Shown here: in pieces, positions 1 to 31,994 of the stretch
Layout: the number at the start of each line of letters is the position of its first letter
Numbering within the stretch: the stretch's first letter is position 1
Source of the DNA: an uncultured Candidatus Saccharibacteria bacterium
GTDB lineage: Bacteria; Patescibacteriota; Dojkabacteria; GCA-002793355
Assembly (NCBI GenBank): GCA_964525295.1
Contig: CAZGEO010000001.1
Span: forward strand, 248,662-312,661
Direction of reading: 5' to 3'
DNA length: 64,000 nt
Notes under the pieces: generated by a model
Told to the model about the DNA's origin: nothing
What the model saw: the letters and a program-made list of their open reading frames with translations, nothing else
Databases searched by the model: none
Program-made: the position numbers and the translations under genes

Positions 1-1953
1 TCTAAACAAGGTAATTTGCGATGCACTCTGCGGATCGACTGCAATTGATATAGCACGCGACTTCTTGTCATTTTCTGCGGTATTTATTTTCTCGCCAAGA
101 TATACATTAAAGTACGGTGGATCATTATTTTCTTTCACAATTTGTGAGGGAAATGCATAACTCAAGTGAGTAACTGTAATGATAACCTCTTCATTATGAT
201 TGCCTAATTGAAATGTGCCTCGCGCATCAGTAACCAAGGTTTCAAGTAATTTCGAATTATCTGAAGCAAGAAGTACCCTCACGATTGCTCGAGATATAGG
301 TTTTTTGGTAAGTGAATCATACACAATACCGACAATATTCTTTTCTGCAGTTCTTGCCATCGAGAATAATGGATATAGAAGTCTATAAGCAAAATCTGCA
401 CCAAATAATTGAGTCGCAACTGAAACCGCACCCGCTTGAAACTTTCCGCCTGGTTTTCCAGCCAATAGAGCAGAGAAGCCTCTAATTAGTCCATCTAAAC
501 CGACTAAAATTACAATACCAGCAGAAACAATTGTTTGTTCCTCAGTAAATGTTGTTGTGGTATTTGCAGGGGGAACTGGAGAAGTGATAATTGGTGTAGT
601 TGGAGGAACATACGGAACACCGCTCGTTGGTTCAATTTCATCTGAAATGTGTGGCGTCATATCAAACAACGTAACACTCGGTGTTACCGAAGTAGTAACT
701 GAAGGCGTTACACTTGTCGTAGCTACAATTGACGTTGAGACAGTTACCGAAGGCGTTATTGTTACTGTTGCGGTTGGTGTGCCCGTTGACGTGACGCTTG
801 GCGTATAAACTATCGTGGACGTTGGCGTGATTGTTGGTGAAGGTGTCGCAGTTGGCGTTATGGTTGGGGTATCAGTCGGAGTGTCAGTTGGGGTCGCAGT
901 AGGTGTATCGGTTGGGGTATCAGTCGGAGTGTCAGTTGGAGTCGCTGTCGGCGTATCGGTCGGAGTTGGAGTAACATCATCACCATAATTTGCAAAAACA
1001 TTTATTCGTGCCTGACCAGACTGCGAAATGAGCACATTTCCTGAGGGAAGAACAAGAACATCAGCGGGTTCATCAAATTGCTCAGGATCTGTACCCCAAA
1101 CTCCCCAATGGGTAATGTACGTTCCGTCACTGCTAAACTTAATAACGAAATCTGTTGAATATTCGGTCGTATAGATATTATCGTTCTCATCAATGCCCAT
1201 TCCAACTGCGGTATAAACCTCATCAGGATTATTCTCATAGCCTTGGATAGACCATTGTGTTTGATAAGTAAAATTCGAATCAAATTTTTGAACACGCGCA
1301 TTGTCGTCACTAACGTAAATATTTCCAAGAGAATCAATCACAATTCCATTCGGAAAATTGAATTGACCGGCGCCACTTCCAGTGGCTCCGTAGGTATTTA
1401 GTAAAGTTCCCGCACTTGAATATTTTTTTACTCGGTGATTATAAGAATCAGCAATCCAAATATTACCTGCAGAATCTGTTATTACATCCCAAGGACGATT
1501 TAATCCTGCCGTAATTGTGACTAAACGATTAAAATTTGAATCATAAACTAAAACCGAACCTGCATTCAGGCCAATACAGGTATTAGTAACGTAAATTCGA
1601 TCGAGTGAATCGACCCACATTCCTTTTGGACAGTTGATATCTGCATCTGAATAACTGGTAATAAAAGCTCCTGAATCAGAAAATACCCGAATCTCATGAT
1701 TATCTCCATCAGCAACAAAAATGTTTCCACTACTATCAACGGCCAATCCCCAGGGGGTAGACCATGAATCTCCGCCTTGAATGGTGCTCCAATTCGAAAC
1801 AAACTGCGCAGCAAGTACACTTCCTTGTCCTATCTTTTCTTCTATTGGATTTTGTGTGAATGTTTTAGATGTCACTAAAAGCGAAAATGCGAGCCCAACA
1901 GTCAAAATGAGGAGAGTTATAACGACACCTTTCTTTCTACCTTGATTTAACAC
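1..1953 (-). CDS. Secreted NHL-repeat beta-propeller protein (partial; C-terminus lies beyond the window start) with Thr/Pro/Asp-rich linker and a C-terminal carboxypeptidase-regulatory-like segment
   Basis: My own translation of the minus strand gives the N-terminal region ...RKKGVVITLLILTVGLAFSLLVTSKT (signal-peptide-like) followed by repeated NHL-type motifs (YNHRVKKYSSAGTLLNTYGATGSGAGQFNFPNGIVIDSLGNIYVSDDNARV). Positions about 560-1000 encode a PTDTPTDT... low-complexity linker. Positions about 190-260 encode LETLVTDARGTFQLGN, which resembles the CarboxypepD_reg fold. The probable start is GTG at about 1953 and there is no in-frame ATG. The gene is not in the ORF track because it runs off the window edge. 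Confidence 0.6.
   Translation of the reverse strand, partial: MLNQGRKKGVVITLLILTVGLAFSLLVTSKTFTQNPIEEKIGQGSVLAAQFVSNWSTIQGGDSWSTPWGLAVDSSGNIFVADGDNHEIRVFSDSGAFITSYSDADINCPKGMWVDSLDRIYVTNTCIGLNAGSVLVYDSNFNRLVTITAGLNRPWDVITDSAGNIWIADSYNHRVKKYSSAGTLLNTYGATGSGAGQFNFPNGIVIDSLGNIYVSDDNARVQKFDSNFTYQTQWSIQGYENNPDEVYTAVGMGIDENDNIYTTEYSTDFVIKFSSDGTYITHWGVWGTDPEQFDEPADVLVLPSGNVLISQSGQARINVFANYGDDVTPTPTDTPTATPTDTPTDTPTDTPTATPTDTPTDTPTITPTATPSPTITPTSTIVYTPSVTSTGTPTATVTITPSVTVSTSIVATTSVTPSVTTSVTPSVTLFDMTPHISDEIEPTSGVPYVPPTTPIITSPVPPANTTTTFTEEQTIVSAGIVILVGLDGLIRGFSALLAGKPGGKFQAGAVSVATQLFGADFAYRLLYPLFSMARTAEKNIVGIVYDSLTKKPISRAIVRVLLASDNSKLLETLVTDARGTFQLGNHNEEVIITVTHLSYAFPSQIVKENNDPPYFNVYLGEKINTAENDKKSRAISIAVDPQSASQITLFR
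557..1000 (-). repeat. Low-complexity coding repeat (Thr/Pro/Asp/Val-rich linker; core PTDT tandem about 841-975)
   Basis: Direct nucleotide repeats (ggtatcagtcggagtgtcagttgg recurring). The + strand frame gives the GVTxxV artefact ORF 557..808, and the minus strand encodes the PTDT repeats. Confidence 0.7.
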
Positions 1954-2062
1954 TTCTACTATTGAGCAACATTAACTAACTAATAATAGCATTCTCATTG
2001 ACACATGCAAAGTTCTCGTACATAATAGGTCAACTAGTTATTTTTACGTAAATATAAAAAAC

Positions 2063-2602
2063 ATGGCAAAAGCAGCGCCTACAATTCTAATTATCGAAGA
2101 CAATCAAGATTTAGTTGAGATGTATCGTCTGAAACTTTCACTCGAAGGTTTTCAAGTTGAAACAGCAACTGATGGAGAACAGGGTATTCTTAAAGCTGTA
2201 GAGTCAAAACCAGACATGATTCTTCTTGATATCTTAATGCCAAATATGAATGGATTCGAAGTACTTAAAGCTCTTCGTAATAACACACAACTCAGTACAC
2301 AGATTATAGTTCTTTCAAACCTCGGTCAATACGAAAACATTAAGGAAGCAAAAGACCTCGGTGCAACCGAATACATGGTCAAAGCAAATACAACACCAAC
2401 AATGGTTGTTGCAAAAATTAAAGAATTATTAGGTTTGCAGAATACTCCAAAAGAAGCATCTAACATCACGACCGCCGTCAAAGAAGAAGATAAAGATGCG
2501 ATTATTGCCGAAAAATTAGAACGTTATAAAAAGCTTCTTGATGAAGGTGTCATCACTCAACAGGAGTTTGATGAGATAAAGAAGAAGTTGTTGTTTAGCT
2601 AG
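2063..2602 (+). CDS. Stand-alone response-regulator receiver (REC) protein with C-terminal SHOCT-like motif
   Basis: ILIIEDNQDLVEMYR...ILLDILMPNMNGFEVLKAL...YMVKA carries the CheY-like Asp/Thr/Lys signature. The C-terminal ERYKKLLDEGVITQQEFDEIKKKLL matches the SHOCT pattern. Confidence 0.75.
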   Translation: MAKAAPTILIIEDNQDLVEMYRLKLSLEGFQVETATDGEQGILKAVESKPDMILLDILMPNMNGFEVLKALRNNTQLSTQIIVLSNLGQYENIKEAKDLGATEYMVKANTTPTMVVAKIKELLGLQNTPKEASNITTAVKEEDKDAIIAEKLERYKKLLDEGVITQQEFDEIKKKLLFS

Positions 2603-2671
2603 TAGATTTCACTAAGACCTTGTGAACAACAATAATTGCGATTTATAGGTTAAAAATGATATACTTCGACA

Positions 2672-3778
2672 ATGTCAATTATTAGCTTGCCGAAAACCGA
2701 GAATCAACCCAAAAACTTTTCTGCCGACTTGGTGACAGGTTACATAAGAATTGGCCCTCGAGAACCTATTTCACTCTTAGAATCATTGAATACAGAAAAA
2801 TCGCGAGAGCGTGACACCAACGAAAAAAGAATTTCATCCCAAAACCATTTTGATTTTATTGTTCAGTGGCGCTCGCGAATAGGCAACAATCATGGATACT
2901 CAAATACCTTACTTGAAAAAGTAAGAACTACAACTTTTTTACTTGCTGGCGTTGGAACAATTGGCGGACAGGCAGGTCTGAGGCTTGCAGAATGGGGTGC
3001 CGAAAGCATCATCGCCATTGATCCCGATTCTCCAGGTATTCATAATCTATCAAGACAAGCCGCAACATACTCAGATGTAGTCAAAAATACATCAAAACCC
3101 GATGCTTTCAAACAAATTGTAGAAAGCAAAAACCCCTACGCTAAGATTGATTCGCGTCATGAAGCTATAACTCCAGAAAATGCGGAAAAATATGTAACTG
3201 CTTCTGACATAATTATTGATGCTATAGATATAGCTGGAATAGATGGAATTATTGCGTTGCATGAAGAAGCCTGTAGACAAAAGAAAGTTGTAATTACTGG
3301 ATTCGATCTCGCGGGAATGTCATATATCAGGGTATTTGATTACAGAAAACTTACAAAACCATTCGAAAATTCATCTGTGACCCCTCAATATATTGAACAA
3401 GTTAAAAATGCTGTAGCAGCTCACAGAACAGGACAAATATCAGTAGAGAAATATGACGGAATTGTGAACGCTTTTACAACAAAGCTCCTAAATCCACTAC
3501 ATGTTCCGAATGAGGAATTAAAGCTTCTGTTGCACAAGAAAGTGGGCGAGCCACACATGCAATATCCACATACTGCAAACAATATTGGCAACATCATTTC
3601 AGAGGTAGTACTGAGAATTCTTAATGATCAACTCGTAAAAGATACCATCAAAATCGACTTAACCGATCAGGTAATAGTACGTTCAAAAATTCGCAATAGG
3701 CTCGAGCGAATGTTTTTACTTATTAAAGTCTTAACGCAGGTCGATGCAAAAGAGAAAGACGCAATGAAAAAAAGTTAA
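2672..3778 (+). CDS. ThiF/MoeB/E1-like adenylyltransferase-fold protein with N- and C-terminal extensions
   Basis: FLLAGVGTIGGQAGLRLAEWGAESIIAIDPDSPGIHNLSRQ is the Rossmann GxGxxG plus the D.D..NLsRQ ThiF signature. It has no CxxC zinc pairs and no rhodanese domain. Confidence 0.7.
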   Translation: MSIISLPKTENQPKNFSADLVTGYIRIGPREPISLLESLNTEKSRERDTNEKRISSQNHFDFIVQWRSRIGNNHGYSNTLLEKVRTTTFLLAGVGTIGGQAGLRLAEWGAESIIAIDPDSPGIHNLSRQAATYSDVVKNTSKPDAFKQIVESKNPYAKIDSRHEAITPENAEKYVTASDIIIDAIDIAGIDGIIALHEEACRQKKVVITGFDLAGMSYIRVFDYRKLTKPFENSSVTPQYIEQVKNAVAAHRTGQISVEKYDGIVNAFTTKLLNPLHVPNEELKLLLHKKVGEPHMQYPHTANNIGNIISEVVLRILNDQLVKDTIKIDLTDQVIVRSKIRNRLERMFLLIKVLTQVDAKEKDAMKKS

Positions 3779-3793
3779 GTTTAAATAAACATT

Positions 3794-4867
3794 ATGGTAT
3801 TACCAGATCAACCAAGCTCATTTGAAATACATAAAGCCCCCGCTGAAATTAGACAAACATACTTCTCTCCCGAGTCCAATGAATTGGTAGCACGTCAAAT
3901 TATTGAGCCTTCAATGCTCTTAGAAGCCAATCAGAAAGTGGCGATGACATACAAAAAACATGGGTACCTTACCGATCAAAAAATACTTACAGTTCCAAAA
4001 GATATTGATCCTGTTGATCTCATGGATAGGCGATACAGCGAATCACTTGCTATGACGCTAATTCAAGCACAACATGGCCCAGAAGGAGTTGCAGAGTACC
4101 TGCATGGACATGTCTTCATAGCTCAAAGACCAACCGAAAGTGAAGGACAATCTGGTGAATTACTCGGTTTAATTGATGTGTATATTCCAAAACAACGTAC
4201 ATATATAGTCACAGGGAACGGTGAAATTCTTTACTCTGTACGTACAATTCCCAAAACTGCGGAGCGAAAGCTACCAATTCAACAACTAACTCTAATCGGA
4301 GATGCACTGCAGCAAAAAGGTATAGATCGACGCACAGCAGACAATGAAGGAACACCTGCACTATTCATCCCAGAAATGCTTGATAAAGAACTTCTCAGCA
4401 GACTACTACCCGGAGCAAAATACGAAGAAGTAAATGCTTTACTCACAGAAGCTTCACCAAGAGCAACGATCAATGCATTACAAGTCGAACTCTCTCAACT
4501 CGCCGTATGTACAGATGATTTACGAATTCCTGATGCGTTTGAAAAGCTATTTGCAGCATTATTTGCAGATGAAGAAAAGCATGGGATACGTCAATTCGGC
4601 GCCGTGCTAGATTTTGGAGCATTAATACTCGAAAACGCATTAAGAAAAGTTGATAGCGAAGAACGCCCAAGATTCGGCATTATTCCATTGGCTGAAAAGA
4701 CCAGGTATATGGGTTCTCCTGTCGTCCCTGTATTAATTGATAGAGATTATTCAATTCAAACGGTTGCAAAAACACATCCACGATTAGCTGAAATATTAGA
4801 AGGACTATTGCCAGACAAAATTCGAGAATCTATCAAGAGATTAACAACTGTCGTAGAAACTGTATAA
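3794..4867 (+). CDS. Hypothetical protein (357 aa), fold not recognised
   Basis: Clean ORF lying 16 bp after the ThiF-like gene and 7 bp before the histidine kinase. I recognise no motif with confidence. Confidence 0.5.
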   Translation: MVLPDQPSSFEIHKAPAEIRQTYFSPESNELVARQIIEPSMLLEANQKVAMTYKKHGYLTDQKILTVPKDIDPVDLMDRRYSESLAMTLIQAQHGPEGVAEYLHGHVFIAQRPTESEGQSGELLGLIDVYIPKQRTYIVTGNGEILYSVRTIPKTAERKLPIQQLTLIGDALQQKGIDRRTADNEGTPALFIPEMLDKELLSRLLPGAKYEEVNALLTEASPRATINALQVELSQLAVCTDDLRIPDAFEKLFAALFADEEKHGIRQFGAVLDFGALILENALRKVDSEERPRFGIIPLAEKTRYMGSPVVPVLIDRDYSIQTVAKTHPRLAEILEGLLPDKIRESIKRLTTVVETV

Positions 4868-24310: not shown

Positions 24311-25384
24311 CTAAAACTTTGGAATTGTTACAAATTCTTGTTTTTTACCTTTCAATGTGAATCTTACACAGACCGAACAAAGCCCAAGGGTACCCCCTGG
24401 GGTATATTTTATGCCGTATAACTGGTCGTTTACAACAGTTGCGCCAAGATACTTTGCTTGTGCCCTAATCTGATGTGTTCTACCAGTATGCAATGAATAC
24501 AAAAATAGTAATTTATCTTCAGATTCAGCAATCGCATATACGTCACTAATACAATTCTTCACGCCTTGTAATCTACCAGTTTGTCGTTGATCTGGAGAAT
24601 ACACCATTGCAATGCCTCCCCTACTCTTTCCAATGAAACCATCGAGATCAATTACATTCTCACGAGTAATTCGTGATTCAATAATTTCAAGAATTTCAGC
24701 ATTTGTGAACTTTTTATCTATTGCAAACAACCTACCAGCTTTTCTTTCTTCTGCAAAAAGTCTTCTGACACTATTATTTAACTGCGGAGTTTTATTGCAA
24801 TAGGCAAAATAATATTTCTCAAGATTTCTCGTTTCAAACAGCTTTTTCACTTCATTGTATGTTTGCATATTTTTGGCAAACATTAATATTCCCTGGGTTT
24901 CTTTATCAAGTCGATGTAAAAGCCCAGCTCTGGGAACATAATGGTGAATAGACTGCATATATTTGATGTATTGATACACCATTGAGTCTGCACCTTTGTC
25001 TCCTCTTCCTGGATGAGAAGATACCCCCGGGGGTTTATGAACAACCAACATATCGTCATCTTCAAAGAGTATCGCCGGCTTGATATCTCCAGCTGAAGCA
25101 ATTCGTTCTGCATCGAGCTCAAGACCTTCTTCGCTTGCATCCCACGATTCTGCCTCTTGATCTTGTCTCTTACCTGTTTGATATAAAACAATCATCGCGC
25201 GAACTTTTTCTTCATCAATCTCGGGAATATGCTTCTCTGTGTCAAAGGTAAATCCTTTTTTCTTTATAACTTCACCTAAAAGCGAAACAGCGCCTGCTTC
25301 AAGTAATTTCTCAACATACGTACGTGATAACTTAACACCAAACCTTCGTTCGATTTCAGCCTGAATATAAGAGTCTAAACGCAT
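24311..25384 (-). CDS. RluA-family 23S rRNA pseudouridine synthase (RluD-like, N-terminal S4 domain)
   Basis: HRLDKETQGILMFAKN carries the catalytic Asp. VVHKPPGVSSHPG is present. About 40 aa are inserted before the catalytic core. Confidence 0.8.
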   Translation of the reverse strand: MRLDSYIQAEIERRFGVKLSRTYVEKLLEAGAVSLLGEVIKKKGFTFDTEKHIPEIDEEKVRAMIVLYQTGKRQDQEAESWDASEEGLELDAERIASAGDIKPAILFEDDDMLVVHKPPGVSSHPGRGDKGADSMVYQYIKYMQSIHHYVPRAGLLHRLDKETQGILMFAKNMQTYNEVKKLFETRNLEKYYFAYCNKTPQLNNSVRRLFAEERKAGRLFAIDKKFTNAEILEIIESRITRENVIDLDGFIGKSRGGIAMVYSPDQRQTGRLQGVKNCISDVYAIAESEDKLLFLYSLHTGRTHQIRAQAKYLGATVVNDQLYGIKYTPGGTLGLCSVCVRFTLKGKKQEFVTIPKF

Positions 25385-25891: not shown

Positions 25892-26620
25892 TTATGATTT
25901 CTTAGATTCAGTTGATTCTTTTTTTTCGTTAGATTCTTTTTTTTCGACTTTGCTATTCTTTTTCGCTGATAATGATTTTGAAACAGCTTGAGTTGTAGCA
26001 GTCAAAGAACTTTTGATTCGTCCCATTAATCCATTGATTCTTTCAACGACCGTAGATTTCTTCTTATCTGAAACAACCGGCTTCATTTCTACCGCTTCTT
26101 CAACCACTTTTTTCTCTTCTGGTGTCAATTTTTTACCGCATGATGAACAAAATCCATTGTAAATGCTCTGTAATGTGTCACATTGAGGACAATTCACATT
26201 CATTTGCGTACCACAAACTGCACAGTAATTATGACCGACAGGAACCAAGGTATGACATGAAGGGCAATCATTTACCGAGCTAAGCTCGTACATCAGATAT
26301 TTACTTTCGAGTTTGGTCCATTGCTTTTCTTCTAAGGTTACCACAGGACGCATGAATAAATAACCAATAAACCCGAGAACGTTAAAAGGAAGCACAAAAA
26401 TGAACCAAATTAATGCCATTGGCCACTCTTTATATCGATTAACCGCATCAACAGCGACCCACAGTGCAAAAACTAACCAAATAATAAAAAACCACACAAT
26501 CATAACGCGAAAAACAAGCATAACATCAACACCAACCAATGCTTTAAATAATGATTGAGTATACTCCCCTAAATCTAGTGAGTTTGTGGTATCTGCTGAC
26601 TGTGCAAGAAATGCGTACAT
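25892..26620 (-). CDS. Membrane protein with cytoplasmic double zinc-ribbon and Lys/Ser-rich tail
   Basis: CPSCHTLVPVGHNYCAVCGTQMNVNCPQCDT...CSSCGKKL carries four CxxC pairs, preceded by 2-3 TM helices. Confidence 0.5.
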   Translation of the reverse strand: MYAFLAQSADTTNSLDLGEYTQSLFKALVGVDVMLVFRVMIVWFFIIWLVFALWVAVDAVNRYKEWPMALIWFIFVLPFNVLGFIGYLFMRPVVTLEEKQWTKLESKYLMYELSSVNDCPSCHTLVPVGHNYCAVCGTQMNVNCPQCDTLQSIYNGFCSSCGKKLTPEEKKVVEEAVEMKPVVSDKKKSTVVERINGLMGRIKSSLTATTQAVSKSLSAKKNSKVEKKESNEKKESTESKKS

Positions 26621-26730: not shown

Positions 26731-26806
26731 CAGACTGAAGAATTATAACAAGTATTTGAACATTTCACAAACGAGATGAGTCACCTGTTACTGAAGAATT
26801 ACAAGA

Positions 26807-26835
26807 AATATTAGCGATTTTGCCGAAGCGGCAAA
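26807..26835 (-). terminator. Probable intrinsic terminator downstream of dnaB
   Basis: GATTTTGCCGaagcGGCAAAATC is a perfect 10-bp stem followed on the minus strand by a U-rich tract. Confidence 0.5.
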
Positions 26836-26912
26836 ATCGCCTTACAATGTCTTCAATCTGCTTAACATTTCGAGCGCACCAGTTGGTGCGGACAACAACC
26901 ACATGAGTCCGG

Positions 26913-28241
26913 CTAATTCTTCTGAACACTTTCCTTATCAAGATTTCTGAAACTTGCGAGTTCCTTTACAAAGGCAATTTCAACTGAACCGGTAGGGCCG
27001 TTACGATGTTTTGCAATCTTTAATTCAACAATACCCTTTTTCTCGGTATCTGGATCATAATAATCTTCACGATGAATGAACATAACAATGTCAGCATCCT
27101 GTTCGATTGAACCTGAATCACGCAAATCCGATAACTGTGGCATCTTGTCTGGACGATCTTCCGTTCTACGTGACAACTGTGAAAGTGCAATAACAGGCAC
27201 TTTCAATTCACGCGCCATATTTTTTAGTTCTTGTGAAATTTGAGAGACTTCTTGCGTTCTTCCCTCTTTCGAATTACCTTGAATCAACTGCAGGTAGTCA
27301 ATAAAAATAATGTCAATTCCCTGCTCCATGTACAATCGACGTGCTTTTGTACGAAGTTCGACAATATTGGCACCTGGTGTGTCATCAATATATATTGGTA
27401 AATCAGATAATTCACCAGTTGCTTCAGATAATTTCGCGAATTCATCATCAGAAAGCTTACCTGTACGCATTTCCCAAAGCCCTACCCCACTTTGTGACGC
27501 CAAAAGACGCGAAACCATTTGCTGCTGCGACATTTCTAGCGAGAAATACGCTGCTTTCTTACCATCCATAGATAGTTGACGCATCATTTCTAACGTTAAT
27601 GCTGTCTTACCCATTGCAGGTCTTGCTGCAACAATAACCAGGTCTGATTTCTGAAAACCACCCAAAAGTGCATTGAGATCGCGAAAACCTGTATTTATAC
27701 CGATTAAATTTCCATCACCAACGTTTACCTGTGCTGCTTCTTCATACACTTGCTCGAGCACATCGCGAATATGTGTGAACCCTTTTTCGACACCCTGTAC
27801 AGAAACATTGAACAATTCCTGTTGAGATTGGTTAACAACGTCATTTGTTGGTTTTTCTTCATCGAATGCTAAATCTGTTATAGATGCTGCTGCGGTAATT
27901 AAATTTCGCCTCAGAGCCTTTTCTTTAATATTTTTCGCATACTCCTCGGCATGAGCTGAGGTTGGAACAGCCTCTATAAGTTCGACTAGATACGCACGCC
28001 CACCGATCTCTTGCAATTGCCCTTTTTTTTGCAAGAAGTCTGTCAATGTCAATTGATCAATAGAAACTGACGCCATAAACAGATCTGACATAGCCTTATA
28101 AATCAGAGCATGGCGTTTTTCATAAAAATGTTCTGGGCGAAGAAACGACAATACACGCACCAAAGCATCACGATCAAGCATAATTGCACCCAAAATACTT
28201 TTTTCTGCATCGAGATTTTGTGGTGGAAGTTTTGCTGACAT
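26913..28241 (-). CDS. dnaB: Replicative DNA helicase DnaB
   Basis: Walker A AARPAMGKTALTLEMM, the DnaB N-terminal domain, and the DDTPG...IDYLQL motifs. Confidence 0.9.
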   Translation of the reverse strand: MSAKLPPQNLDAEKSILGAIMLDRDALVRVLSFLRPEHFYEKRHALIYKAMSDLFMASVSIDQLTLTDFLQKKGQLQEIGGRAYLVELIEAVPTSAHAEEYAKNIKEKALRRNLITAAASITDLAFDEEKPTNDVVNQSQQELFNVSVQGVEKGFTHIRDVLEQVYEEAAQVNVGDGNLIGINTGFRDLNALLGGFQKSDLVIVAARPAMGKTALTLEMMRQLSMDGKKAAYFSLEMSQQQMVSRLLASQSGVGLWEMRTGKLSDDEFAKLSEATGELSDLPIYIDDTPGANIVELRTKARRLYMEQGIDIIFIDYLQLIQGNSKEGRTQEVSQISQELKNMARELKVPVIALSQLSRRTEDRPDKMPQLSDLRDSGSIEQDADIVMFIHREDYYDPDTEKKGIVELKIAKHRNGPTGSVEIAFVKELASFRNLDKESVQKN

Positions 28242-28285
28242 TATTCTTGATTATACATTCAAATGAATCCTTTTTATAGCTTCCC

Positions 28286-29341
28286 TTATTCCTCTTGATA
28301 CAACATCCGATCCAATCGTTCAAATACACCTAAAGACGGGGAATTCTTTGCATTCGATACAGATGATAATAATGTCATAAAATCTTGCATTCTTGGCATT
28401 CTAGAAAGCAATTCACGCATAATTTTCTGCCCTTGTAAGATAAGCTCTCTTTCTTTATTATGCAATTCCGCTTTTTCGTTGAACTTTCGCTTCTGCTCTT
28501 CGATAAAAAATCGAGCTTTCTCAACATTTATCTGATTGCCAGCTGGCAATAGCATTACTGTCAATTGCCTATTTTTTGCTAATTTCACTGTTTTTTCACC
28601 CTTTGCAAGATACTCTTCTAGCTTTGGCACTTTCGTTATCCCTGCAGTTGAAATTACCTCTTCATTCAAACTTATCGCAGAAACATTCTTTGCTCCCAAA
28701 GATTCTAGTGCTAGTGTTAAAAACCTACTTGAAGCGGGGTATATCGCCAATACAGGAACGTCAATGATTTCGGGATTACTAATCAAACGTTCTATCGTAT
28801 TTACAATACTCGTTTTCCATTTTAAAATTTTTACTGATTGTTCATGCGCATATTTTTGTATGAGAAATTGTTCTAATTGCATTTTTCTTATAACTTCGCT
28901 TTCAGTCGGTTTCTCAGGAAAATTTCTAAATGAAACAAGTGCGTTAGCTCGCTTCTCAGGCGTTCTTGAAAACAATTCTGGTCGTGCAAGATGCATCTTT
29001 AGTAGATATAACGAAGATACAACACTACCATCTTCTAAATAAATTTCACCGTTGGCAAAAAGGTATTTCTTGAACCCTATTGCTGATTCACCTCCAGGAT
29101 AATACGTTCGAGTTGAATAGGCATACAGTAGAAGATCCAACGGGTTTTCAGGTTGTAATACTTCAGGAATAATATTTGGCGGGCAAATTATTGACTCACT
29201 ATTGCCTTTTTGTACCGCTGATTTTACAGCATGAACAAGTCCAGCAAATCGAAGTTCAAATTCACTAATGATACGTGGAGCAGGATTTCTCGAATAATCG
29301 TGTTTAGTATTTGGCTGCCCTACGTGCATTTTACAAAGCAT
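28286..29341 (-). CDS. Hypothetical protein (351 aa)
   Basis: ORF only. Confidence 0.4.
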   Translation of the reverse strand: MLCKMHVGQPNTKHDYSRNPAPRIISEFELRFAGLVHAVKSAVQKGNSESIICPPNIIPEVLQPENPLDLLLYAYSTRTYYPGGESAIGFKKYLFANGEIYLEDGSVVSSLYLLKMHLARPELFSRTPEKRANALVSFRNFPEKPTESEVIRKMQLEQFLIQKYAHEQSVKILKWKTSIVNTIERLISNPEIIDVPVLAIYPASSRFLTLALESLGAKNVSAISLNEEVISTAGITKVPKLEEYLAKGEKTVKLAKNRQLTVMLLPAGNQINVEKARFFIEEQKRKFNEKAELHNKERELILQGQKIMRELLSRMPRMQDFMTLLSSVSNAKNSPSLGVFERLDRMLYQEE

Positions 29342-29918
29342 AAACTTGCATTGAAACTGCGCCTTCTCTATCTGTAGCTTCTATTTTTTTAATTGTGACT
29401 TTTTCAACTTCCTTTACTTCAGAAATTCCACTCTTCTTCTTATATTCTTCTGTAACTTCTGGCAAAATCACGTAAAATGGCTCCATATCTAATTGTGATG
29501 ATGCCAACGAAGTATCTTTACCAACAATTACGTCAATTGGAGAATACTGCTTAACAAAATTATCTCCAGGTGCGCACGCAATGAAACCTACAGTACCTTC
29601 AGGAGTTTCTAAAACATAATGTGCCATTGCATCTAGGCTACTGCCTTTTAGGTGTACTTCGCCTACTCTATATTCTCCAGGAGTCAAAATGATTACAATC
29701 TCTCGTTCTTTTTTTAATTTCTGTGAAAGCACATCCCACGCAAGGAATTCCTCGGTTGAAAGAGCTTTTGCCGTATTTACCAACACGAGCTGTACCCCTT
29801 CAGGAATTTTCTCAGAAATATCGCTTGTATTTGCGATTGGTTCAATAAACCAGGCGACTTTCGTATCACGTACTTCAAGAATAATTGCATTAGATTTTTT
29901 ATTTTTTGTGATTTGCAC
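29331..29918 (-). CDS. Hypothetical protein (195 aa)
   Basis: ORF only. It overlaps the upstream gene by 11 bp, suggesting co-transcription. Confidence 0.4.
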   Translation of the reverse strand: MQITKNKKSNAIILEVRDTKVAWFIEPIANTSDISEKIPEGVQLVLVNTAKALSTEEFLAWDVLSQKLKKEREIVIILTPGEYRVGEVHLKGSSLDAMAHYVLETPEGTVGFIACAPGDNFVKQYSPIDVIVGKDTSLASSQLDMEPFYVILPEVTEEYKKKSGISEVKEVEKVTIKKIEATDREGAVSMQVYAL

Positions 29919-29998
29919 GATATTTCAGTTATTAAGTAAGCAGATGATTGTAGCGTGTAACAGCCACTTTTGCAATTAATAAAATGCGTTTGCTGGCC

Positions 29999-30229
29999 CT
30001 ATCGAAGTAATTCTGAGAGGTTCTCTAAAGAAGCCATAACCTGATCTTTAGTATATTCTTCAACCAGAGTAATTTTTGATGATTCTAGTGAAGAAATAAT
30101 TGCTGTTACTTGAATAAGTATCTGTTTCGGTGGAAGCTTCTCTTCTTCAAGCATTTTTTGAACTGCACGTAACTGCCCTTCAATTCGTTTCAGGCGAGTT
30201 ATCATCTGTTCTTTTGTTTCCTTCTTCAC
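29999..30229 (-). CDS. CsoR/RcnR/FrmR-family (DUF156) transcriptional repressor lacking the canonical Cys/His ligand residues
   Basis: TRLKRIEGQLRAVQKMLEEE matches the family RLxRIEGQxRG signature, and the size of 76 aa fits. The protein contains no Cys or His at all. Confidence 0.65.
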   Translation of the reverse strand: MKKETKEQMITRLKRIEGQLRAVQKMLEEEKLPPKQILIQVTAIISSLESSKITLVEEYTKDQVMASLENLSELLR

Positions 30230-30241
30230 TATTCATTATAC

Positions 30242-30257
30242 ATACCCCCGGGGGTAT
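30242..30257. promoter_or_regulatory. Perfect 16-bp palindrome ATACCCCCGGGGGTAT (candidate CsoR-family operator) in the divergent intergenic region
   Basis: Lies 13 bp upstream of the repressor start codon. CsoR/RcnR operators are G/C tracts flanked by AT-rich inverted arms (established knowledge). Confidence 0.55.
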
Positions 30258-30325
30258 ACGTCAACCGCCAGAATGCATCGATTTTTACAATTTGCGCCAC
30301 AAAATTGAAAAGCGTATAATTAACA

Positions 30326-30913
30326 ATGTCAGAATTAGTGCCCTTTCAACGCAAGCGAAAAAAATTACTACCAATCACAATTACCCCACTTCAAGCAGTT
30401 TCTGATGAATTATTGGTTTATTTATCTGAGAAATTTCCCCAGTATCTTACTTTTGTAGAGAATTCTGACAAAAATTTCATAAAATATTGCGATGAAGAAA
30501 AGAAGACACTTTATAGTGTGCAATTACAGGATGTTCCACGCCCCGTGGAGCTTGCTCGCATAATTGCCCCTGTAACCTCTCCTGAGTTAATTAATGACTC
30601 TACACTACCCTGGACACTTCATCGTCTTGATTCACCAGTTATTGTCCTTTGCTTTCTTGCACAAAAACTATCTGTTGCAAAACCTATATGCCTACTACCT
30701 AAGCCGTATCAAGCGATGATGAGAAAAGTCTATAGTGATGTAAGTATTCGAAATGCGCTTGCTATAAACATCGCCTCAGCCAGACGAGCAAGTAAGTATT
30801 TAAGAATACTGCAAAAGAGATTGGGGATTTATCCTAAGAAAAAAACACCGTTTAAGGTCGATCTTGTAAAAAACGCAATTGCTCCTCTGACAGAAGTGCG
30901 TGTAGAAAATTGA
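30326..30913 (+). CDS. Hypothetical protein (195 aa), divergent from the CsoR-like gene
   Basis: ORF only. The 3' end overlaps the convergent gene by about 60 bp. Confidence 0.4.
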   Translation: MSELVPFQRKRKKLLPITITPLQAVSDELLVYLSEKFPQYLTFVENSDKNFIKYCDEEKKTLYSVQLQDVPRPVELARIIAPVTSPELINDSTLPWTLHRLDSPVIVLCFLAQKLSVAKPICLLPKPYQAMMRKVYSDVSIRNALAINIASARRASKYLRILQKRLGIYPKKKTPFKVDLVKNAIAPLTEVRVEN

Positions 30914-31994
30914 TCAATTTGTTGCCTGAAGTTCTTCGTAAAATATCATATACCGCTGGATTGTTTCGTAATAATCTCGATATTGCTTTACGTGCAACCA
31001 TAGGCCTGACGCCAGAATGATAATTGAAATGTGGCGCCAACTGCTTCAAGCGTAATGCAATCTTGGTTTCAAGATCGTCAAGAATTTCTTTTCGATCACG
31101 ATTATTAATATCGGCGCCATCTAGCGATAAACGCGTCCATCTGGCGATCATTTTTTTCAAATTATTATCAATTTTCGACTTCATTTTGAAATGTTCAAGA
31201 AGCATTTCTGGGCCTACTAGCAACAGCTTCCCTTTCTTATGTGCTTCTATCAGAATCTCATCGTCATCAAATAGTGAATTCGTTAATGGCATTTGCTTAA
31301 CGTCGCTAAAATGCAATTTTTCAAGAGCTTCATGTACTAAATCAAGTCGAGGACGCCAGCCATTATCATTCTTTGTAATAATTTCAGGCAAATTGAGTAA
31401 TTTATACGTTTCGTAGGAATGTTTCTGCGGTAATTCTGACTCGTAATCATCAAGTGCTTTCCTTTTTGCAATTCCTGAATCAACAAAACCATTCTGTACT
31501 TTACAAAGTAATGAATTTACCTTAAAGAATGAAAACAGGCCCTGATCGACGTCATGAAATAGTTTAGGTGCAATTTGTGATTCTACATCTTCTTTTGTAA
31601 TTTTCTTGTTCGCCCAAATATATCCAGTTGTTACACACGATGAATAAGGCCCGCGGTCTGATAAAACAATAATTGAAGGATCTTCAGCCAATATGTTTTC
31701 TACCAGCAGAAGGGCGATACTACGATCAAGAGCATACATAGTACCGCGCACACGAGCTTCTTCTATACCGGTCATTTCATCAAATACATCTGCACAAACA
31801 CCACGAGTCATTAATCGAGTGTCGTGAGCAAAAAACCAAAACTGTGGAAAATTCATCAACAAAATCTTTCGATTTGGTTCCGTAATAACGAGATATTTTG
31901 CGATACTTCGGACCAGATCATTTTTACCTACAGAGTCTCCCCCTTCAATAAACATCGCCGGATACAATGGCTGAGGGATTAGCTTTCTACTCAT
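30852..31994 (-). CDS. P-loop nucleoside/nucleotide kinase-like domain (thymidylate-kinase/dNK-like) fused to about 180-aa C-terminal extension
   Basis: MFIEGGDSVGKNDL is a deviant Walker A (IEGxDxxGK). VLSDRGPYSSCVTTGY resembles the TMK DRY..S..AY motif. Confidence 0.5.
   Translation of the reverse strand: MSRKLIPQPLYPAMFIEGGDSVGKNDLVRSIAKYLVITEPNRKILLMNFPQFWFFAHDTRLMTRGVCADVFDEMTGIEEARVRGTMYALDRSIALLLVENILAEDPSIIVLSDRGPYSSCVTTGYIWANKKITKEDVESQIAPKLFHDVDQGLFSFFKVNSLLCKVQNGFVDSGIAKRKALDDYESELPQKHSYETYKLLNLPEIITKNDNGWRPRLDLVHEALEKLHFSDVKQMPLTNSLFDDDEILIEAHKKGKLLLVGPEMLLEHFKMKSKIDNNLKKMIARWTRLSLDGADINNRDRKEILDDLETKIALRLKQLAPHFNYHSGVRPMVARKAISRLLRNNPAVYDILRRTSGNKLINFLHALLSEEQLRFLQDRP

Follow-up and report, generated by a model that had tools for sequence, protein, structure and literature searches.

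The repressors of the CsoR/RcnR family are a textbook case of a single scaffold that is tuned to different inducers through the residues at a few positions, designated W, X, Y and Z. This raises the question of what such a regulator does once the residues that carry the sensing chemistry are gone. A gene of this kind lies in the window, that is, in the whole stretch of 64,000 nucleotides analysed here, which belongs to contig CAZGEO010000001.1 of an uncultured bacterium placed by GTDB among the Dojkabacteria, within the candidate phyla radiation (CPR). CPR bacteria have few transcription factors and are not growable alone. The encoded regulator lacks cysteine and histidine altogether, and a palindrome resembling a CsoR operator precedes its gene. 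As argued below, the protein is probably an autorepressor with a CsoR fold and no canonical inducer site, which would exert negative feedback on an operon that contains dnaB.

A CsoR-family protein without the canonical sensing site

An earlier note on this DNA had described the gene product as a 76-aa protein of the DUF156 family without Cys or His, and this description is borne out. The translation (MKKETKEQMITRLKRIEGQLRAVQKMLEEEKLPPKQILIQVTAIISSLESSKITLVEEYTKDQVMASLENLSELLR; 0 Cys, 0 His) scores 59.9 bits (E = 3.2e-16) with the Pfam family PF02583 (Trns_repr_metal, previously DUF156), whose cut-off is 22.8; the match covers profile positions 2-72 of 78. Its sequence matches in the PDB are CsoR, InrS, CstR and FrmR. 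The structure was predicted as a single chain with AlphaFold2 (AF2), from the alignment of the clade defined below. In this model, which has a predicted local distance difference test score (pLDDT) of 92.7, the protein consists only of helices 6-29 and 34-75, whereas the family protomer has three helices. As a monomer prediction, the hairpin superposes on InrS and on the CsoR of Streptomyces lividans (SlCsoR) at 1.1-1.5 Å over 59-65 residues, and the top 15 Foldseek matches of the model in the PDB are all from the CsoR family (CsoR, InrS or CstR chains). The C-terminal 13 residues extend alpha2 and do not fold back. The AF2 model lacks the alpha2-alpha3 loop of canonical members, so that alpha3 runs on from alpha2.

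The ligand positions were mapped by HMMER alignments to solved structures, namely the CsoR of G. thermodenitrificans and S. lividans, InrS, and the CstR of S. pneumoniae. In these alignments, the X cysteine falls on Pro33/34, inside an LPPK insertion, the Y histidine on Tyr59 and the Z cysteine on Gln63. The N-terminus reads M-K-K and offers neither the histidine of RcnR and InrS nor the Pro2 of FrmR. In addition, no specific NCBIfam family matches the regulator above its cut-off (RicR, 41 vs 175 bits; FrmR, 27 vs 133; RcnR, 20 vs 138).

The regulator does not stand alone. An exhaustive search of 1.84 billion protein representatives returned 190 matches, and the nearest dozen or so (P0002-P0013 and P0015) contain no Cys except for one in the N-terminal extension of P0005; their full-length members have 73-99 aa, mostly about 75. 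The profile search shows a gap in score, with about 25 clusters at 82-121 bits and the ordinary members with two or three cysteines at 72 bits or less. The regulator is therefore assigned to a distinct, short (~75 aa) clade of about 25 clusters that lack Cys and His at X, Y and Z. Three subclades can be told apart: A (LVEEYTK...LSELLK), which includes the window; B (IQVQAITSALDSVRT); and C (MPKKGxSxIxDRLHRIEGQVRGIE), one member of which carries the NCBI label Candidatus Dojkabacteria. Between the regulator and its 88%-identical homologue at locus L004, the proportion of non-synonymous differences (pN) is 0.09, and that of synonymous differences (pS) is saturated at 0.75. By this measure, the gene is under strong purifying selection.

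The loss of the sensing site extends to the whole clade. In a MAFFT alignment of 29 clade members with 225 other PF02583 members, the X, Y and Z columns of the latter hold Cys in 90%, His in 62% and Cys in 84% of sequences, respectively, and Cys or His occurs there in 0 of the 29 clade members. This family alignment had been proposed as a check in the earlier note, which also held that the Cu/Ni/Co, formaldehyde and persulfide chemistries of the family are out of reach for the protein. Given the lost X, Y and Z positions, the lack of any Cys or His, and NCBIfam scores far below the cut-offs, the view that these chemistries are impossible here is supported. One paper (PMC5016687) describes the X cysteine as a residue that all DUF156 proteins conserve and that belongs to every known sensory site, and in a network of 32,476 family sequences it is present in every characterised cluster (PMC8643695).

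By contrast with the lost ligands, the elements for DNA binding are retained, namely R12-L13-K14-R15 (the RLxR motif), G18, Q19, Q40 and A43. R12, R15, G18, Q19, Q40 and A43 are conserved in the clade and in the 225 other members alike; within the 29-member alignment, all of these are invariant apart from R12, which is found in 27. In the CsoR of S. lividans, operator binding depends on the arginines of RLxR and on the equivalent Gln (PMC3902906).

Sporadic sequences without cysteine also occur outside the clade: Cys is absent altogether from 17 more distant representative matches, and 10% of the 225 other members lack it at X. Ligand loss is thus unstudied rather than unique in the databases. 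In the literature searched on Cys-less or uncharacterised CsoR-family members, on the operator sequence in connection with CsoR, and on regulators of Dojkabacteria (including PMC8643695 and PMC11672702), neither a characterised Cys-free member nor a CsoR-like regulator linked to dnaB was found.

A conserved putative operator within the regulator's own promoter

The regulator gene shares a 96-bp intergenic region with a divergent open reading frame (ORF) of 195 aa. The perfect 16-bp palindrome that the earlier note had reported there is present at 30242-30257, although its distance to the start codon is 12 nt and not 13. The best sigma-70-like promoter in this region, TTGACG-18-TATAAT on the minus strand, has 11 of 12 consensus matches, and the dyad (ATACCCCCGGGGGTAT) occupies its spacer. 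Since the GTG start codon lies only 5 nt past the -10 hexamer, the mRNA of the regulator is probably leaderless. The GTG start is in turn supported by the ATG of homologues at the equivalent position.

Starts of this kind are not confined to the regulator of the window. Both the regulator (30229; also in L003, L005, L006, L010 and L015) and the divergent gene (30326) start 5-8 nt past a -10 hexamer of the TATAAT/TATACT type, and no Shine-Dalgarno sequence is present. Start codons so near to the -10 suggest that leaderless mRNAs occur in the CPR lineage of the window.

Perfect palindromes of 16 bp are not rare by themselves, with 5 observed in the window and about 1.6 expected from Markov-1 simulations, and so the decisive evidence for the site is its position and its conservation. 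For ATACCCCCGGGGGTAT itself, allowing up to 3 mismatches, 0.04 occurrences are expected in the window.

Conservation was followed through the loci of relatives, numbered L001-L019. A profile scan with a narrow alignment found one genome locus and five metagenome loci, and, of the GTDB species representatives, only Ca. Dojkabacteria cMAG.19 was matched, in its complete genome (CP129477.1; L005). The operator comparison covers 14 lineages whose regulators share 35-88% identity. In all 14, a dyad ATACCC-N4/5-GGGTAT stands between -35 and -10, and all recovered loci have an ATAC...GTAT dyad directly before a -10 of the TATAAT/TATACT type. Thirteen of the 14 lineages have a -35 of the TTGAC type separated from the operator by 0-3 nt; the exception is L008, with TTGC. 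The earlier note would have counted the absence of the palindrome from relatives against its hypothesis of a regulatory pair; the site is instead this widely retained.

The pattern of variation within the site is also informative (Table 1). Among the 12 tabulated 16-mers, positions 1-4 (ATAC) and 11-16 (GGGTAT) do not vary, and the site of L013 follows the same pattern, whereas the two central bases vary freely (CG, AC, CT, CA, GT, TA, TC and GG). Invariant arms around a free centre are what one expects of a dyad-symmetric protein site rather than of a hairpin or restriction site. The window and L004 are 100% identical over the block of 35 nt that begins with TTGACG and stops just short of the start codon, despite a pS of 0.75. 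The distance from the end of the operator to the start codon is 10-16 nt in subclade A and 24-41 nt in subclades B and C.

Table 1. Operator sites in the window and at the loci of relatives
Locus	Site	Remark
Window, L001, L002, L004, L005, L015/16	ATACCCCCGGGGGTAT	
L003	ATACCCCACGGGGTAT	
L006/7/9	ATACCCCCTGGGGTAT	
L010	ATACCCCCAGGGGTAT	
L014	ATACCCCTCAGGGTAT	
L011/12	ATACCCGGTGGGGTAT	
L013	ATACCCGTAAGGGTAT	
L017	ATACCCTGGGGGGTAT	
L018	ATACTGGGGAGGGTAT	
L008	ATACCTCTATGGGTAT	
L019	ATACCCCTAATGGGTAT	one extra base

Experimentally defined sites are known for the CsoR of S. lividans (ATACCCCCTAGGGGTA and ATACCCCTGGTGGGTAT, with the consensus ATATACCCCTNAGGGGTATAT), in which the TAC/GTA inverted repeat is essential for binding (PMC3902906). 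With its TAC/GTA arms and a C/G tract like that of the S. lividans sites, the predicted operator is of this experimentally defined CsoR type, to which the earlier note had also attributed the palindrome.

At one locus, L013, an AT-rich palindrome of 17 bp (ATACAATCTAATTGTAT, at about 3947-3975) directly follows the operator ATACCCGTAAGGGTAT. It shares the GTAT/ATAC junction with the operator and covers the -10, and may be either a second binding site or a coincidence.

Sequences that resemble the operator were also found elsewhere. In the window, the only other matches are GTACCCCCTGGGGTAT and ATACCCCCGGGGGTTT, at 24390-24405 and 25021-25036, each one mismatch away from ATACCC-N4-GGGTAT, where 0.03 are expected by chance. 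Both lie inside an rluD-like ORF (24311..25384, minus strand) and were not counted as operators. They encode YTPGGT and KPPGV through rare codons (CCC, CCG and GGG, with 9.6%, 12.6% and 13.6% of their codon families), and the first of them keeps TAC-N8-GTA intact. Two sites within mnmA, ATACCCTGGAGGGTAT (L005, 2515) and TACCTCTAGGGGTA (L014, 3858), were likewise rejected as operators, as they are explained by the coding of I-P-x-x-V. These are most likely driven by coding, because the L005 site encodes IPWRVY and the mnmA of the window, which encodes IPWKVY, is without the site. Finally, an inverted repeat (I2; 30284-30293 / 30302-30311) over the promoter of the divergent gene was dropped, as it is not conserved in L004.

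The co-directional cluster and dnaB

Downstream of the regulator, on the same strand, lies a second ORF of 195 aa, which resembles proteins with a metallo-beta-lactamase (MBL) fold and is followed by a 351-aa ORF (orf351) and dnaB. Across the clade, a conserved series of genes is seen, with the regulator, sometimes a sortase, an MBL-like protein of about 200 aa and dnaB, and often a gene for a DZR zinc-ribbon protein next. The order regulator, MBL-like gene, dnaB occurs in L003, L005, L006, L008, L011/12, L013, L015/16, L018 and L019, and dnaB comes after the MBL-like gene in L005, L006, L008, L011, L013, L014, L015/16, L018 and L019. The co-directional cluster of these two genes is thus present in almost every lineage for which sequence is available. 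In subclade C, the genes are closely packed, the sortase lying 4 nt behind the regulator, the MBL gene following after a gap of 17-53 nt and dnaB after one of 2-13 nt.

Judged by this conservation, the partner of the regulator is the co-directional cluster and not the divergent gene, and the downstream 195-aa ORF is the more relevant neighbour of the two. The earlier description of the locus was right about the regulator ORF and the palindrome; it overlooked the strand, the overlap with the promoter and this second 195-aa ORF (29331..29918).

The nature of the MBL-like protein is best seen in relatives. In subclades B and C (L011, L013, L018 and L019), the protein of about 200 aa matches PF13483 (Lactamase_B_3). 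The protein of the window has no Pfam match and no NCBIfam match, and it aligns with the Lactamase_B_3 proteins at an hhalign probability of 78% (E = 1.8e-5). An AF2 model, built with homologues from the protein search, has a pLDDT of 69.6; its top fold matches in the PDB all have the MBL fold (1vjn, E = 6e-6), with a template modelling (TM) score of only about 0.38. The HxHxDH motif is absent, so that the protein is probably not a metallo-hydrolase, and H89 and H100 are its only invariant histidines.

For orf351, there is no Pfam or NCBIfam match. It is missing from L002, which is 95-99% identical, and from all other lineages, and it is thus considered a recent, lineage-specific insertion. 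On the minus strand, between the promoter of the regulator (30264) and the strong terminator at 26841-26813, no terminator-like site was found, and therefore the putative transcription unit comprises the regulator, the MBL-like gene, orf351 and dnaB.

A proposed feedback mechanism

These features can be joined in a simple mechanism. An oligomer of the two-helix protein would read the TAC/GTA arms and the G/C tract of the operator in the manner of CsoR. The bound oligomer would fill the spacer between -35 and -10, exclude RNA polymerase and shut the regulator's own, probably leaderless promoter. Transcription from this promoter is predicted to read through the gene of the MBL-like pseudo-enzyme, orf351 and dnaB to the terminator. 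The result would be a ligand-independent, homeostatic autorepression in which the level of expression is set by the concentration of the repressor.

The overlap of the operator with the promoter of the regulator directly predicts autoregulation, and since the promoter is shared, repression would amount to negative feedback on the whole putative transcription unit, including dnaB. Feedback that depends on concentration is proposed because no residue of a canonical or candidate ligand site is conserved across the clade. It is thus probable, if far from certain, that the regulator is a CsoR-fold autorepressor without a canonical inducer site that exerts negative feedback on the dnaB-containing operon. 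A wider claim is offered more tentatively, namely that the clade has been repurposed, either into a sensor-less, two-helix housekeeping autorepressor of the dnaB operon or into a sensor that detects an entirely novel type of signal at the E-E-Y-T/K35 interface.

Some observations weigh against feedback on dnaB by a sensor-less repressor. The residues L-V-E-E-Y-T-K around the former Y/Z site are the best-conserved part of subclade A, and such conservation is unexpected for a site that has no function. In the model, the missing alpha2-alpha3 loop leaves uncertain how the oligomer, in the family a dimer-of-dimers tetramer, would assemble. A candidate internal promoter just behind the regulator, ahead of the MBL-like gene (hexamers within 29975-29947, also present in L004) could drive the MBL-like gene and dnaB independently of the regulated promoter. 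In L014, the regulator is inverted and points away from the MBL-like gene and dnaB; it still adjoins them there, but co-transcription is lost. Finally, gene order appears to be weak functional evidence among related genomes with a conserved mnmA...dnaB...DZR synteny. As all lineages belong to one CPR group in which this synteny is generally conserved, the order of genes is suggestive and not proof.

Alternative explanations

The conserved residues around the former inducer site bear on the alternative that the protein is still an inducible sensor, with a new site and a new chemistry. The carboxylate, phenolate or amine groups of K35 and E57-E58-Y59-T60 could then hold a hard cation or a small metabolite, and ligand binding would release the operator. 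These residues stand at the meeting point of X and Y/Z from two protomers in CsoR; in subclade A, LVEEYTK and P-K35 vary hardly or not at all, and they map to canonical inducer-site positions, and 9 of the 11 members of subclade A combine a basic residue 35 with E57-E58, the two exceptions having E35 and Q57. Moreover, all characterised family members are inducible (PMC8643695, PMC5016687). Nevertheless, subclades B and C have K57 and vary at 35, 58 and 59 under the same operator and gene context, the neighbouring genes point to no ligand, and the charge pattern could equally be a structural salt bridge between subunits. The K35/E57 charge coupling was not used as evidence, being suggestive in subclade A and inconsistent across the clade. 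Because subclades B and C change the residues yet keep operator and context, a new sensor is ranked second, as a possible but rather unlikely explanation. The loss of the regulator's own sensing site is also compatible with relief of repression by a protein, such that the MBL-like pseudo-enzyme or the divergent protein would act as an anti-repressor. The regulator is persistently found beside a catalytically degenerate MBL-like protein, with no HxHxDH and two invariant His. However, the CsoR family offers no precedent for this, and the MBL-like gene is tied to dnaB (gaps of 2-13 nt) at least as tightly as to the regulator; an anti-repressor seems very improbable.

The divergent 195-aa gene, which the earlier note had put forward as the candidate target, could be controlled by the repressor from the shared intergenic region. 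It adjoins the regulator in L001, L002, L004, L005, L006, L007, L009, L010 and, in part, L003, which are all the subclade A loci with sequence, and the two promoters stand back to back, about 26 bp apart. In subclade A, the likely -10 of the divergent gene (TATAAT at 30313-30318 in the window, 5 nt ahead of the ATG) is conserved, and a weak -35 (TTGCGC) lies at 30290-30295. The operator, however, is located in the spacer of the regulator's own promoter, about 32 bp beyond this likeliest -35. In L008, the two genes are about 800 bp apart, and in L014 the homologue is convergent and downstream. As to the co-occurrence that the earlier note proposed to analyse, subclade A alone has the divergent gene beside the regulator. 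Its place is taken in subclades B and C (L011, L013, L018 and L019) by a Y1-transposase-like gene, an unrelated gene of 319 or 231 aa, or rpmE, with the operator unchanged. It is thus improbable that this gene is the main target. Least credible of all is that the gene is what remains, in a reduced genome, of a decaying and non-functional metal sensor, and that the palindrome is a chance occurrence or a coding-independent relic. The genome is reduced (the contig measures 659 kb), the sensing residues are gone, and perfect palindromes are more frequent than expected (5 vs ~1.6), but the gene is under strong purifying selection (pN 0.09 vs saturated pS 0.75), about 25 clusters of intact proteins of ~75 aa exist, and operator and promoter are kept in 14 lineages. 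On the conservation of promoter and operator together with pN/pS, this explanation appears effectively refuted. The divergent-gene target, the anti-repressor partner and the dead relic all rank lower than a new sensor.

Other features of the region

The features of the locus are collected in Table 2. The divergent 195-aa protein has no significant Pfam or NCBIfam family. In L014, a homologue of its C-terminal half is fused to an N-terminal DUF1858 (1790..2872, minus strand); the DUF1858 match, at 32.2 bits, is exactly at the Pfam cut-off and is the only functional hint for the divergent family. An ORF of 380 aa (30852..31994, minus strand) lies opposite the divergent gene and shares 62 nt with its 3′ end. 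The N-terminus of the 380-aa product contains a P-loop-like segment, with a weak NCBIfam match to dTMP kinase (E = 7e-4, far below cut-off), and a homologue of it stands beside mnmA in L006/L007.

Past the terminator of dnaB, a promoter-like site with a TG-extended -10 (TTGTGA-17-TATAAT) is found at 26742-26770 on the minus strand. Behind it lies the gene for a DZR zinc-ribbon membrane protein (25892..26620, minus strand), which follows dnaB in L005, L013 and L019 too. No Rfam family matches within 28000-31500. An origin of the locus from a mobile element was considered and is unsupported, as phage records give only weak, generic family matches.

Table 2. Features of the regulator locus (window coordinates)
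Feature	Position	Strand	Remark
Terminator, intrinsic, after dnaB	26813..26841	-	13-bp stem, 7 G-C pairs, T-rich tail
dnaB, replicative helicase	26913..28241	-	last gene of putative unit; Pfam DnaB/DnaB_C on identical L001 gene
orf351, 351 aa, no assigned function	28286..29341	-	overlaps stop of MBL-like gene by 11 nt
Degenerate MBL-like protein, 195 aa	29331..29918	-	no HxHxDH; 80 nt downstream of regulator
Candidate internal promoter, TTGCAA-17-TACAAT	29947..29975	-	9/12 matches, weak; in 80-nt gap between regulator and MBL-like gene
CsoR-family (PF02583) regulator, 76 aa, Cys/His-free	29999..30229	-	GTG start; predicted two-helix hairpin
-10 hexamer TATAAT of regulator promoter	30235..30240	-	ends 5 nt before GTG
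Putative operator, perfect 16-bp dyad ATACCCCCGGGGGTAT	30242..30257	.	TAC-N8-GTA around C5G5 tract
-35 hexamer TTGACG of regulator promoter	30259..30264	-	from promoter scan
Divergent gene, 195 aa, no assigned function	30326..30913	+	adjoins regulator only in subclade A

Significance

What appears to be new here is a shortened, sensor-less CsoR clade that is under selection, has a conserved predicted operator and would have an unusual genomic role in CPR bacteria. A selected clade that has lost X, Y, Z and the alpha2-alpha3 loop and kept the CsoR operator would make it possible to test what the bare scaffold does, constitutive feedback or new sensing, and also which residues suffice for operator recognition. 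The pair is among the very few concrete and testable predictions of a regulator and its operator in CPR bacteria, and it is linked to dnaB. As the operator is short, exact and conserved, binding assays and tests with heterologous reporters would be straightforward. If the proposal is true, this would be the first CsoR-family regulator without thiol or imidazole chemistry, and the first transcription factor assigned to the control of a replication gene in ultra-small (CPR/Dojkabacteria) bacteria.

Comparison with known systems

Within PF02583, the regulator can be set beside both uncharacterised and characterised groups of the sequence similarity network (SSN) of the family. With the uncharacterised SSN clusters 6-9, which hold 9.5% of family sequences (PMC8643695), it shares family membership and the lack of a known inducer. 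CstR, the persulfide sensor with an x-C-x-C ligand set (SSN clusters 3, 4 and 10), is similarly short, at about 85 aa, and is close in sequence (7mq1, E = 6e-6) and in the fold alignment (42-44% identity). However, CstR needs two Cys for its di-, tri- or tetrasulfide cross-links (PMC8643695), and the regulator of the window has zero.

The Ni/Co sensor RcnR and the formaldehyde sensor FrmR (SSN cluster 2) belong to the same Pfam family and share the alpha1-alpha2 scaffold (PDB 5lcy and 5lbm). RcnR differs in its H-C-H-H ligand set, which includes an N-terminal His (H-C-H-C in InrS), where the regulator has no His or Cys. It also has RASK instead of RLxR and binds type-1 sites with a single G-tract (PMC3902906). 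FrmR relies on a methylene bridge between Pro2 and Cys35 (PMC5016687) and has frmA as a neighbour, whereas the regulator starts with M-K-K and has no Cys.

The best match in both sequence and fold is CsoR, the Cu(I) sensor of M. tuberculosis, B. subtilis, S. lividans and G. thermodenitrificans (SSN cluster 1/23, PMC8643695). The differences from CsoR are considerable. Its ligands are x-C-H-C or x-C-H-H, in place of which P, Y and Q stand at X, Y and Z here; it has about 90-135 aa, compared with 76 aa in two modelled helices without the alpha2-alpha3 loop; its dyad has a spacing of N9, whereas TAC-N8-GTA is found here except in L019; and its neighbours are copZ and copA, not an MBL-like gene, dnaB and uncharacterised genes. 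Nevertheless, the likeness covers sequence (4m1p, E = 1e-7, ~37% identity), fold (4adz, root-mean-square deviation of 1.2 Å over 62 residues), the RLxR motif with the conserved Gln of alpha2, and an operator built as a TAC/GTA inverted repeat around C/G tracts. It includes the place of that operator, at the regulator's own promoter, as is known for csoR of S. lividans (PMC3902906).

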